Source: Escherichia coli
Lineage (GTDB): Bacteria; Pseudomonadota; Gammaproteobacteria; Enterobacterales; Enterobacteriaceae
DNA length: 64,000 nucleotides
Reading direction: 5' to 3' (one strand)
Assembly: GCF_044324785.1 (NCBI RefSeq)
Contig: NZ_CP172127.1
Shown: positions 29,513 to 49,170 of the stretch, in pieces
Layout of the letters: every line of letters begins with the position of its first letter
Position numbering within the stretch: position 1 is the stretch's first letter
Translations under genes and position numbers: made by a program
Notes under the pieces: model-generated
Database searches by the model: none
The model's input: the letters and a program-made list of their open reading frames with translations, nothing else
What the model was told of the DNA's origin: nothing

Positions 29513-30940
29513 TCACCCGAACAGATGGAGTATTTTCCCTATCAAACCGGCAAAGATAAAAATGTAGAAAATAATTTTGATGACGCCCAGACAGCCCGGC
29601 CCACCATCGTCAACGGGCATTGGCTGCGGTTGCGGCTCCGGTTCGACGGTTTGCTTCTCGGTAAAATTTGCCGCCTGAATTAATAATCGACGAATCATTA
29701 ATGCTTCCAGTGGACAACGATCTTCTGCATCAAGGCGGCTCACAATCGGCATTAATGATTCTTCTGTCGGTTGGCTGGCCTGAACTAATTGTTTAGCAAC
29801 TAAATATAATGGCCATAAGGGATGTTCTGTATCACGCGTGAGTGAGATTCGCGGCTTACGTCCTTTGTGCAAAACCATCTCGACCAGAGAACGCCCCAGC
29901 GCAGAGAGTTTTTCATCACTGAGTATTTCGTATAAATGAAAACGCGTACGAGCGCTGTCACCAGGGACATAAAGTAGCGGTTTTCCCTGATCGTTAACCA
30001 GATCACGCGCTTCAATCATCATCACCACTAATGGGTAATAATCGACCCGATGCTGACGGCACCATTGCAACATTAAAGCATCCGCCTGAGTGGAGGGATA
30101 CTCGCGCCAGTAGTCACAAAGTTCTGCCAGCAGGCTTTCGCCTTCTCCACAATAGACGCGTTGCGCGTATTCATAATAACGCGCATCTTCATTATCAGGT
30201 TCAGCTTCCCGCCACGACCGGGCGTAATCCAGAAGTTCGGGGATATCCAGACGGCTTGTGCTATACCAGCGGAGTAAATTTCTGTGCAAATTTGCATCAT
30301 CGGGGATGATCACTGCGCGATGTTGCGCTAAATACAATGTCAGCCATTCTGGATGCGATGACCAAATCCGAGCGAACATTTGGTAAAAATCGATGGTGTC
30401 ATTTTGCACGGCAACGGGCAGATGCAGAATGGTCTGGAAGTTAAAAACATTCCCCTTCGCAATGGCATATAAAAAGGATTCCAGTTCTTCTTCGTCTATT
30501 TCCCCGACGTTTTCCTCCTGCAACCACCGCAATCTTTCTGCTAATAACACCACGCACTCGAAGGATAAATGGGCAGTGTTCATGGCGATTGTGCACAGCG
30601 ACCAGCGTAATTCATCAATCTCTTCCATCGAGCAATAATTTAATTGCTGAATGAATCGCTGCCAGGCGGAGGGCAGAAAACGTTCGATATCAGAGGCAAG
30701 TAACGCGCGAAAGGCGAGCAGAATTTCATGTTCTGCTACCTCATATTCTTCTGGTTGCCAAACAGATTTAGCAGGCGACTGCGCAATCCGTAGCGCATCC
30801 TCATACGCCTGACGAAGTTGTTTAAAACCCTGCGGATCGGTTTCTGGATGAAAGGACGGTAACAGCGCCAGATAAGCGCGGCGGATAATATCGACGTCAG
30901 TCGTTTGAGATATATCGAGGATCTGCCAGCAATTTTTCAT
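29513..30940 (-). CDS. djlB: DjlB (YbeS), membrane-anchored J-domain protein, paralog of DjlC
   Basis: 475-aa ORF; N-terminal J-like domain (HPE), C-terminal hydrophobic anchor; 4-nt overlap with upstream ybeR. Confidence 0.9.
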
Positions 30941-43165: not shown

Positions 43166-44254
43166 ATGCGTAAGCAGTGGCTCGGGATCTGCATCGCGGC
43201 AGGAATGCTCGCGGCATGTACAAGCGATGATGGTCAGCAACAGACGGTAAGTGTACCGCAGCCTGCGGTATGTAACGGCCCCATAGTTGAAATTAGCGGG
43301 GCGGACCCGCGTTTCGAACCACTGAACGCGACGGCAAATCAGGATTACCAGCGCGACGGTAAAAGCTACAAAATCGTGCAGGATCCGTCTCGATTTAGCC
43401 AGGCGGGACTGGCGGCAATCTATGATGCCGAACCCGGCAGTAACCTGACGGCCTCTGGCGAAGCATTCGATCCGACACAGCTGACAGCGGCCCATCCAAC
43501 GCTTCCGATCCCCAGCTACGCCAGAATCACTAACCTGGCTAACGGACGAATGATCGTGGTGCGCATTAATGATCGCGGTCCTTACGGCAACGACCGCGTT
43601 ATTTCGCTTTCTCGCGCGGCAGCTGACCGTCTTAACACGTCAAACAACACCAAAGTTCGTATCGATCCGATTATTGTCGCCCAGGATGGTTCGCTTTCTG
43701 GTCCTGGTATGGCCTGTACCACAGTTGCCAAACAGACTTACGCCCTGCCTGCACCTCCCGATTTAAGCGGTGGCGCGGGAACAAGTTCAGTGTCTGGCCC
43801 GCAGGGTGACATTCTTCCGGTCAGTAATTCGACGCTAAAAAGCGAAGATCCGACCGGCGCGCCGGTAACCAGCAGCGGTTTCCTCGGTGCACCAACGACG
43901 TTAGCGCCTGGTGTGCTGGAAGGCAGCGAACCAACACCTGCGCCACAGCCCGTTGTTACAGCCCCCTCGACAACGCCTGCAACCTCGCCTGCAATGGTGA
44001 CACCGCAAGCCGCCTCACAAAGCGCCAGCGGCAACTTTATGGTGCAAGTCGGGGCCGTTAGCGATCAGGCTCGTGCGCAACAGTACCAACAGCAACTGGG
44101 ACAGAAGTTCGGCGTCCCCGGTCGCGTAACTCAAAATGGCGCAGTCTGGCGGATCCAGCTTGGCCCATTCGCCAGCAAAGCCGAAGCCAGTACCTTGCAG
44201 CAACGTTTGCAAACCGAAGCCCAATTACAGTCATTTATTACCACCGCGCAGTAG
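43166..44254 (+). CDS. rlpA: Septal ring lytic transglycosylase RlpA (rare lipoprotein A)
   Basis: 362-aa ORF, lipobox LAAC, DPBB domain, C-terminal SPOR domain. Confidence 0.95.
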   Translation: MRKQWLGICIAAGMLAACTSDDGQQQTVSVPQPAVCNGPIVEISGADPRFEPLNATANQDYQRDGKSYKIVQDPSRFSQAGLAAIYDAEPGSNLTASGEAFDPTQLTAAHPTLPIPSYARITNLANGRMIVVRINDRGPYGNDRVISLSRAAADRLNTSNNTKVRIDPIIVAQDGSLSGPGMACTTVAKQTYALPAPPDLSGGAGTSSVSGPQGDILPVSNSTLKSEDPTGAPVTSSGFLGAPTTLAPGVLEGSEPTPAPQPVVTAPSTTPATSPAMVTPQAASQSASGNFMVQVGAVSDQARAQQYQQQLGQKFGVPGRVTQNGAVWRIQLGPFASKAEASTLQQRLQTEAQLQSFITTAQ

Positions 44255-44393
44255 CGTAAAGCAGGCATCTGATGTGTCAATTTCTGTAAATGACGTTAAC
44301 AAAGTCACGCGGAAAGTCAGATGCCTGCCGGTAGTGCATTTGCTATAGTAGGGCACTTTTTTTAATTCCATCACGGATGTCGTAGTTCAGACC

Positions 44394-45605
44394 ATGAATA
44401 CCATTTTTTCCGCTCGTATCATGAAGCGCCTGGCGCTCACCACGGCTCTTTGCACAGCCTTTATCTCTGCTGCACATGCCGATGACCTGAATATCAAAAC
44501 TATGATCCCGGGTGTACCGCAGATCGATGCGGAGTCCTACATCCTGATTGACTATAACTCCGGCAAAGTGCTCGCCGAACAGAACGCAGATGTCCGCCGC
44601 GATCCTGCCAGCCTGACCAAAATGATGACCAGTTACGTTATCGGCCAGGCAATGAAAGCCGGTAAATTTAAAGAAACTGATTTAGTCACCATCGGCAACG
44701 ACGCATGGGCCACCGGTAATCCGGTATTTAAAGGTTCTTCGCTGATGTTCCTCAAACCGGGCATGCAGGTTCCGGTTTCTCAGCTGATCCGCGGTATTAA
44801 CCTGCAATCGGGTAACGATGCTTGCGTCGCCATGGCCGATTTTGCCGCTGGTAGCCAGGACGCTTTTGTTGGCTTGATGAACAGCTACGTTAACGCCCTG
44901 GGCCTGAAAAATACCCACTTCCAGACGGTACATGGTCTGGATGCTGATGGTCAGTACAGCTCCGCGCGAGATATGGCGCTGATCGGCCAGGCGTTGATCC
45001 GTGACGTACCGAATGAATACTCGATCTATAAAGAAAAAGAATTTACGTTTAACGGTATTCGCCAGCTGAACCGTAACGGTCTGTTATGGGATAACAGCCT
45101 GAATGTCGACGGCATCAAAACCGGACACACTGACAAAGCAGGTTACAACCTTGTTGCTTCTGCGACTGAAGGCCAGATGCGCTTGATCTCTGCGGTGATG
45201 GGCGGACGTACTTTTAAAGGCCGTGAAGCCGAAAGTAAAAAACTGCTGACCTGGGGCTTCCGTTTCTTCGAAACCGTTAACCCACTGAAAGTAGGTAAAG
45301 AGTTCGCCTCTGAACCGGTTTGGTTTGGTGATTCTGATCGCGCTTCGTTAGGTGTTGATAAAGACGTGTATCTGACCATTCCGCGTGGCCGCATGAAAGA
45401 TCTGAAAGCCAGCTATGTGCTGAACAGCAGTGAATTGCATGCGCCGCTGCAAAAGAATCAGGTCGTCGGTACTATCAACTTCCAGCTTGATGGCAAAACG
45501 ATCGAACAACGCCCGCTGGTTGTGCTGCAAGAAATCCCGGAAGGCAACTTCTTCGGCAAAATCATTGATTACATTAAATTAATGTTCCATCACTGGTTTG
45601 GTTAA
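44394..45605 (+). CDS. dacA: D-alanyl-D-alanine carboxypeptidase DacA (PBP5)
   Basis: 403-aa ORF with signal peptide and SxxK (SLTK), SGN, KTG motifs. Confidence 0.97.
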
Positions 45606-49109: not shown

Positions 49110-49140
49110 TCCTGTAATAATTACTTACATCTGTCTGATA

Positions 49141-49170
49141 AAAAACCCGCTTTTTGAAGCGGGTTTTTTG
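49141..49170. terminator. Bidirectional rho-independent terminator between lipA and tatE
   Basis: AAAAACCCGCTT-TTTG-AAGCGGGTTTTTTG, symmetric A/T runs. Confidence 0.8.

Follow-up and report, generated by a model that had tools for sequence, protein, structure and literature searches.

The REP hairpins between malE and malF, reportedly described by Newbury et al. in 1987, are said to act as intercistronic stabilisers. Another kind of hairpin is the stable stem-loop that lacks a U-tract; such stem-loops set the steady-state 3' ends of E. coli transcripts and protect them against PNPase and RNase II (Dar & Sorek 2018, PMC6061677). The hairpin analysed here lies between rlpA and dacA in a 64,000-nt window of E. 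coli DNA, at an operon boundary that is leaky. It is probably a stem-loop of the 3' UTR that lacks a U-tract and serves to set the 3' end of the mrdAB-rlpA mRNA and to protect it. No earlier description of an element in the rlpA-dacA spacer was found in the literature searched.

The rlpA gene (nt 43166–44254, + strand) is the last gene of the rsfS-rlmH-mrdA-mrdB-rlpA operon, and is followed by dacA (nt 44394–45605, + strand), which specifies PBP5. Both coding sequences were placed from the list of open reading frames and from RefSeq annotation (for rlpA, that of the same DNA in E. coli genomes), and in the window they are separated by a spacer of 139 nt, with dacA starting at nt 44394. The junction is found at an identity of at least 95% in 5424 of 5426 complete E. 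coli genomes. A preliminary description of this DNA had pointed to a perfect 12-bp inverted repeat with an AT-rich spacer of 44 nt just after the rlpA stop codon, and this proved to be exact. The arms, GCAGGCATCTGA (nt 44261–44272) and TCAGATGCCTGC (nt 44317–44328), are 12 nt long, 100% complementary and separated by 44 nt with an A+T content of 61%, and the left arm begins 6 nt past the TAG stop codon of rlpA (nt 44252–44254).

By itself, the inverted repeat is only mildly improbable. The window contains three perfect inverted repeats with arms of 12 bp or more and a spacer of 3–100 nt, against 0.37 ± 0.63 (largest value 3) in 100 dinucleotide-preserving shuffles of the window, and the repeat is judged to be real because of its folding and conservation and not because of this count. 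The 12-mer had no match elsewhere in the window when one mismatch was allowed. The 86-nt element that contains the repeat is a single-copy sequence, which 5424 of 5426 complete E. coli genomes carry, in 5267 of them at an identity of at least 99%. A REP/BIME, a MITE or some other repeated or mobile element could be ruled out, the element occupying a median of one place per E. coli genome and the 12-mer being unique in the window. RefSeq annotation of E. coli genomes has no feature under the 86-nt element, and an Rfam 15 search of nt 43800–44800 (E up to 10) returned matches at chance level only, the best being MIR477 with 16.4 bits against a gathering score of 65 (E 2.5).

Two perfect 13-bp inverted repeats were also seen in other parts of the window. 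The first, GAATCATTAATGC (nt 29692–29704 and 29749–29761), likewise has a 44-nt spacer and is located inside an ORF of 475 aa (nt 29513–30940, − strand). The second (nt 49140–49152 and 49157–49169) has a loop of 4 nt, is preceded by an A-run and followed by a T-run, and has the appearance of a canonical terminator. By approximate coordinate arithmetic it corresponds to MG1655 659187–659216, and it matches the end of a lipA transcript at 659188 in SMRT-Cappable-seq data.

RNA folding of nt 44250–44340 gave a stable, long hairpin on the + strand, in agreement with the long-stem structure first proposed, with a minimum free energy (MFE) of −33.8 kcal/mol and a z-score of −4.65, and no shuffled sequence folded as well. 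The − strand of the same region gave −25.8 kcal/mol (z −3.73). In the RNA, the 12-bp stem is lengthened by a 13th pair, U44273·G44316, and the basal stem consists of nt 44261–44273 (the left or 5' arm, GCAGGCAUCUGA plus U44273) paired with nt 44316–44328 (the right or 3' arm, G plus UCAGAUGCCUGC). Each of the 13 basal pairs has a probability of at least 0.97 in a context of 251 nt. The hairpin interior (nt 44274–44315) begins with a one-sided internal loop of 7 nt, which lies between the basal stem and a second helix of 7 bp (nt 44281–44287 with 44309–44315) that includes two U·G pairs, and it ends in a small apical helix (nt 44291–44294 with 44304–44307). These parts, all on the + strand, were delimited from the fold together with covariation (left arm) or with the alignment described below (right arm and interior). 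In E. coli, the last codons of rlpA, UAUUACC (nt 44236–44242), can in addition pair with GGUAGUG (nt 44330–44336); this predicted 7-bp extension would end 2–3 nt from the mapped RNA 3' ends, involves translated codons and is specific to E. coli.

Conservation was assessed in a scan of one genome per species with DacA, which provided 80 Enterobacterales loci, of which 48 Enterobacteriaceae loci plus the window were aligned (alignment A1, 49 sequences). The rlpA-dacA spacer of the 48 loci is 135–150 nt long, mostly 137–143 nt. In all 49 Enterobacteriaceae spacers the MFE fold pairs three to six of the six bases of the dacA −35 hexamer, and the partner is found 3–17 nt past the rlpA stop codon; z is below −2 in 47 of the 49 species, with a median of −4.1. 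The concern that the repeat would not be conserved in related genomes therefore does not hold, as the hairpin is kept in 49 of 49 spacers. Across the 12-bp stem, 83.2% of the cells in A1 are paired, compared with 28.6–38.1% when the partner is slid by 1–3 columns. Because A1 was aligned by sequence and displaces a few left arms, the former value is an underestimate for the species concerned. The score for covariation is 0.271 (0.048–0.097 with the partner slid), changes on both sides are seen in 49 cells, and the observed values were reached by none of 500 shuffles. The clearest covarying pair (36–97) is UA in 23 sequences, CG in 21, UG in three and AU in one.

The two arms differ in their conservation, mean column identity being 0.69 for the left arm and 0.87 for the right arm, and the less conserved left arm tracks the changes of the right. 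The sequence GATGCC (nt 44320–44325) in the right arm is invariant or nearly so in A1; the same holds for TGCTATAGT, the extended −10 element, and for a large part of the dacA leader. Between species, the conserved core of the stem amounts to nine pairs, GGCATCTGA with TCAGATGCC; perfect pairing over 12 bp is the state found in E. coli. The second helix is also kept (78% of cells paired), with a GC/CG flip (11/10) and U·G pairs in 36–41 sequences; the apical helix, with 49% of cells paired, is not kept. In the dacA promoter, positions −59 to −38 correspond to the 3' half of the interior, TTAACAAAGTCAYGCGNAAAGTC, the sequence of which is conserved. A somewhat larger segment, nt 44285–44319 (−70 to −36 of that promoter), is conserved without covariation and contains TGTAA-N7-TAACA (nt 44285–44301) and a direct repeat, AAAGTCA (nt 44301–44307 and 44313–44319). 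This segment may be an UP element or the site of an as yet unknown factor. Sites for CRP, TyrR and CpxR in the conserved interior were considered and rejected, the spacings being unsuitable in a check by eye.

The preliminary description had placed the repeat in the promoter region of dacA, and the right arm does hold the −35 hexamer of a dacA promoter with a mapped transcription start. In a published study (PMC9338883), the −35 and −10 hexamers of dacA were given as ATGCCT and TATAGT, respectively, and a fragment beginning GCCGGTAG drives GFP. The −35 hexamer is located at nt 44321–44326 (+ strand), in invariant columns of the alignment, and the T, G and C of ATGCCT that match TTGACA are invariant in 49 species. 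The extended −10 element, TGcTATAGT (nt 44341–44349, + strand), was placed from the sequence, the alignment and the same study (PMC9338883), and is invariant or nearly so across Enterobacterales. Transcription of dacA starts at nt 44355 on the + strand (MG1655 664001, minus strand) according to SMRT-Cappable-seq (PMC6131387, supplementary files 3 and 4). The spacing between ATGCCT and TATAGT is 17 bp, within the 16–18 bp of a sigma-70 −35 element that precedes a −10 element with a mapped start, and the start lies 6 nt past the −10 hexamer. A simple promoter scan returned no match, which the weakness of the −35 box explains, and the promoter was recovered through the alignment, the published study and the mapped start. 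Since both arms are upstream of the dacA start, the hairpin forms only in RNA that arrives from rlpA.

Two features of the dacA leader were also observed. A T-run (nt 44357–44363) starts 2 nt past the dacA start and consists of seven T in the window and six in MG1655, its length being variable in other species. At pyrBI, codBA and upp, reiterative transcription takes place at T-runs in the initially transcribed region. Further downstream, the leader sequence CAUCACGGAUGUCG (nt 44369–44382) is near-invariant in 49 Enterobacteriaceae and recognisable out to Serratia and Erwinia. The GGA it contains is 17 nt from the AUG, which is too far for a Shine-Dalgarno sequence, and dacA is without an obvious one. 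The same sequence resembles the SELEX consensus of CsrA, RUACARGGAUGU; a literature search for CsrA found no paper that also mentions dacA.

Whether the repeat acts as RNA or as DNA can be judged from the pairs that depart from Watson-Crick geometry. At the nine inner pairs of the stem, 34 G·U cells pair only in the + strand RNA and six only on the − strand, and in 37 of 49 species it is the + strand that gives the better fold (Wilcoxon p 0.004). As the sequences are related and hence not independent, these counts overstate the number of events, but the direction is consistent across clades. A G·U bias of 34:6 is meaningless for double-stranded DNA and so counts against the dimeric protein-binding site that had been suggested as one role of the repeat, and the same asymmetry, together with the unequal conservation of the arms, argues against a symmetric DNA site. 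It is extremely improbable that the repeat acts as double-stranded DNA, be it as half-sites for one or more regulators of dacA (e.g. BolA) or as a cruciform. The right arm does overlap the −35 box, and BolA has been reported to bind the dacA promoter region, with the ChIP motif YYGCCAGH, from which E. coli ATGCCTGC departs by two mismatches and Cedecea/Buttiauxella ATGCCAGT by one. That motif carries very low information, however, and matches with one or two mismatches were discounted as evidence. The arms are also 56 bp apart from start to start, where a palindromic site for a dimer would show a short, fixed spacing, two conserved half-sites and symmetry at the DNA level, and the left arm is far less conserved than the right. 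Finally, the paired segment slides along the −35 region between lineages with complementarity being kept, which fits RNA pairing and not a fixed protein site. Taken together, the hairpin itself, its assignment to the + strand and its link to an RNA 3' end can be regarded with high confidence.

RNA 3' ends have been mapped in strain MG1655, where dacA (662752–663963) and rlpA (664102–665190) are on the minus strand; up to nt 44356 of the window, the MG1655 coordinate equals 708356 minus the window coordinate. The sole difference between the two spacers is one extra T in the run after GGCAC. Strong sense-strand 3' ends at nt 44338 and 44339 (MG1655 664018 and 664017; scores 91306 and 41794) are found in two of the three growth-condition tables of the Term-seq study of Adams et al. 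2021 (PMC7815308, supplementary file 1). These scores are similar to those of the primary ends of cspE and ybeD in the same table. The further concern that no transcript end would map to the repeat does not hold either. The ends sit 10–11 nt past the basal stem and fall within the spacer of the dacA promoter, 16–17 nt upstream of the dacA start. Adams et al. (PMC7815308) classed them as 'orphan' and tabulated them 54 nt upstream of the dacA ORF. Because the dacA start (nt 44355) is downstream of them, premature termination in the dacA 5' UTR is ruled out, and the orphan end is explained as the end of the message of rlpA, i.e. of the elongasome operon, and not as an attenuator in the dacA leader. 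A collision with polymerase bound at the promoter could be ruled out by geometry, since the established footprint sizes of polymerase would place the stall near nt 44282 and not at 44338.

A weak antisense RNA 3' end is found at nt 44255 on the − strand (MG1655 664101, plus strand; Term-seq scores 1166–1788), its coordinate occurring three times in the Term-seq file. On the − strand, it follows the hairpin (…UCAGAUGCCUGC-UUUACG) at a distance of 6 nt, and it implies an antisense transcript that crosses the dacA promoter region. The positions of the sense ends bear on RNase III, which requires a helix of about 20 bp or more and makes staggered cuts within the stem. The 13-bp and 7-bp helices, with a one-sided internal loop between them, approach this length, and cleavage of some 20 stacked base pairs would part the rlpA and dacA portions of a read-through RNA. 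The mapped 3' ends are, however, outside the helix, on RNA with an intact hairpin, and the Term-seq tables list no end inside the stem; cleavage at this site is considered highly improbable.

Term-seq does not distinguish termination from processing. No Rho termination region is listed near 6636xx–6641xx in supplementary file 2 of Adams et al. (PMC7815308), a table known to under-call, and the end as mapped in LB at OD 0.4 is absent from the table of PMC7815308 that carries Rho scores. Among the transcript variants listed in the SMRT-Cappable-seq study of Yan et al. 2018 (PMC6131387), the only one to contain rlpA is rlpA-dacA-ybeD, with its start at 665332. No transcript end at 66401x is present among the entries listed in that study (PMC6131387), but the method selects long capped molecules and the operon is weakly expressed, so the missing rlpA-only transcript is weak evidence. 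As capped full-length reads run into dacA, termination at the hairpin is at most partial. The start at 665332 (window nt ~43024) is inside the end of mrdB, and the rlpA-dacA-ybeD variant is absent from the standard annotation.

The stem is followed by CGGUAGUGCAUU, which has no U-tract and contains 4 U in 12 nt, and a terminator scan gave no match at the hairpin. Efficient termination is unlikely because of this sequence, the negative scan, the capped read-through transcript and the presence of about 65 nt of untranslated RNA before dacA. The preliminary description had envisaged a long-stem RNA that serves as a processing or partial termination site. The RNA stem is borne out by covariation, by the G·U pairs of the + strand and by 3' ends 10–11 nt downstream, and the termination part stands only in so far as it is partial.

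For a protective stem-loop, the events at this boundary would be as follows. Polymerase coming from rlpA would transcribe nt 44261–44328, and the RNA would fold into the 13-bp basal stem, internal loop and 7-bp helix. With no U-tract after the stem, much or most transcription would continue through the dacA promoter into dacA-ybeD. The downstream RNA would then be removed, either by 3'→5' exonucleases (PNPase, RNase II) that chew back to the structure or, alternatively, after cleavage of the RNase E type within GCA|U|UUG, a single-stranded stretch shortly past the stem on its 3' side; the comparison of this motif relies on the published RN|WUU preference of RNase E. The hairpin would block further decay and leave a precise and stable 3' end of the upstream mRNA at nt 44338/44339. 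At the level of sequence evolution, the right arm would be fixed by its function in the dacA promoter and the left arm would evolve to stay complementary. The 3' end is probably made by such trimming or processing rather than by termination, and the benefit of the hairpin would presumably be the protection of the mRNA and a defined operon boundary. The position of the 3' end, which is 10–11 nt from the conserved stem and not at its base, speaks against a barrier of this kind. A further point against it is that a simple exonuclease barrier would require neither a conserved second helix nor a hairpin of this length, related genera making do with a compact one.

A different origin of the same 3' ends would be a weak terminator, either non-canonical intrinsic or factor-assisted, at which some polymerases stop at nt 44338/44339, before the −10 element, limiting read-through into the dacA promoter (promoter insulation). 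The 3' end is sharp and strong, close to a very stable hairpin, present in two of three growth conditions and just before UUU (nt 44339–44341), and the 3' end of the other strand, 6 nt past the hairpin with UUUA at that place, is what a bidirectional terminator would give. At the same position, the hairpin of related genera is compact and GC-rich and ends in a U-rich tail, and elements of this type can switch by a change in U content (Dar & Sorek 2018, PMC6061677). Such a terminator is nevertheless possible rather than likely at the E. coli site, where the arms are 44 nt apart instead of 3–8, no U-tract follows and the terminator scan is negative. In addition, the 3' end is 10–11 nt from the conserved stem and not 7–9 nt into a U-run, and among the capped variants listed the sole one with rlpA reads through to ybeD and has no end at the site.

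The comparison with other Enterobacterales loci indicates how the boundary differs between genera. Pairing between the −35 region and the sequence after the rlpA stop codon is kept in several loci of Erwinia, Pantoea, Mixta, Serratia, Brenneria and Yersinia (L049, L052, L054, L056, L057, L059, L060, L063, L066, L068, L071, L076 and L077). In Rahnella, Hafnia and Edwardsiella, the place of the long-range hairpin is taken by one that is compact and GC-rich, has a U-rich tail and directly follows rlpA, and the Yersinia locus L059 carries this structure as well (compact-hairpin loci L067, L069, L072, L073, L075, L078, L080, L048 and L059, at about nt 2260–2400 in each). The −35 box ATGNCN is kept in genera without the long-range hairpin, and must therefore be conserved for DNA-level reasons that are independent of the hairpin. 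Judging from these sequences, the mRNA-end element at the rlpA-dacA boundary has changed its type between lineages, a turnover at one operon boundary between a compact, terminator-like form and a long-range hairpin without U-tract in neighbouring genera. One Enterobacterales MAG (L058, nt 2152–2500) has a spacer of 348 nt with a compact hairpin at nt 2165–2194 and about 220 nt inserted between its −35 region (GGATGCCTAC…TTTGTTATA) and a second copy of TATAGT-GGCAC.

The fragment that ends in the hairpin could be an sRNA derived from the rlpA 3' UTR, acting as a regulator, a sponge or a ligand of ProQ/Hfq, with the interior UUAACAAAGUCA… as its active surface. In favour of this are a Term-seq score that is high given the weak expression of the operon, a second helix conserved to a degree that a barrier would not require, and the invariant U.ACA bases of the alignment, which the E. 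coli fold places in its apical loop. On the other hand, such a fragment has no known 5' end, the Rfam search gave no match, no mention of it was found in the literature searched, and it is without the poly-U tail for Hfq. The interior also takes up positions −38 to −70 of the dacA promoter, and its conservation is explained equally well by a constraint at the DNA level (an UP element or a factor site). Such an sRNA is very unlikely. Taken more broadly, it is distinctly unlikely that the locus represents either a stable regulatory RNA of the rlpA 3' UTR that is conserved across Enterobacteriaceae or a functional coupling through the −35/post-stop pairing, for example with polymerases of the elongasome operon halting in the spacer of the dacA promoter and thereby tuning PBP5.

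The 139-nt spacer combines, as overlapping signals, an mRNA-end structure at the RNA level and a promoter at the DNA level, one arm being frozen by promoter function and the other evolving to match it. There is a practical consequence for the engineering of the dacA promoter, which has been carried out in strains for protein secretion: changes of this kind will alter the mrdAB-rlpA mRNA at its 3' end as well.

Compared with known systems, the DNA role of the right arm is that of the extended −10 sigma-70 promoters with a weak −35 box, given TGcTATAGT, ATGCCT 17 bp upstream and the arm as −35 region. This class covers only that role and leaves the complementarity of the left arm unexplained. 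Intrinsic terminators, including bidirectional ones, likewise have a stable hairpin at the end of an operon and can show 3' ends on both strands, and a canonical-looking version is found in related genera at the same position. The rlpA hairpin differs from them in its 44-nt interior, the missing U-tract, the negative scan and the documented read-through; it has neither the GC-rich stem with a loop of 3–8 nt nor the run of about 7–8 U, directly after the stem, that holds the 3' end. The REP hairpins of malE-malF are similar in being placed between co-transcribed genes, and like them the rlpA hairpin would keep 3'→5' decay away from the upstream part of the RNA and make the levels of neighbouring cistrons independent of each other. 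Unlike the REP hairpins, however, it is single copy without similarity elsewhere in the window, and dacA has a strong promoter of its own.

The closest class is that of Dar and Sorek (PMC6061677), with which the rlpA hairpin shares a stable stem-loop, no U-rich tail, a sharp Term-seq end immediately downstream and transcription that evidently continues past it. The members of that class have stems and loops of terminator size, whereas the rlpA hairpin has a much longer interior and an architecture of two helices, its 3' end is 10–11 nt from the conserved stem, and its 3' arm doubles as a −35 box. Rho dependence (read-through that rises with bicyclomycin) and a downstream rut site are at most putative at the rlpA site, which has only about 65 nt of untranslated RNA before dacA. 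The hairpin is a new, unannotated instance of a known mRNA-end element, in which the two-helix architecture and the use of the 3' arm as the −35 element of the next promoter are the less common features.
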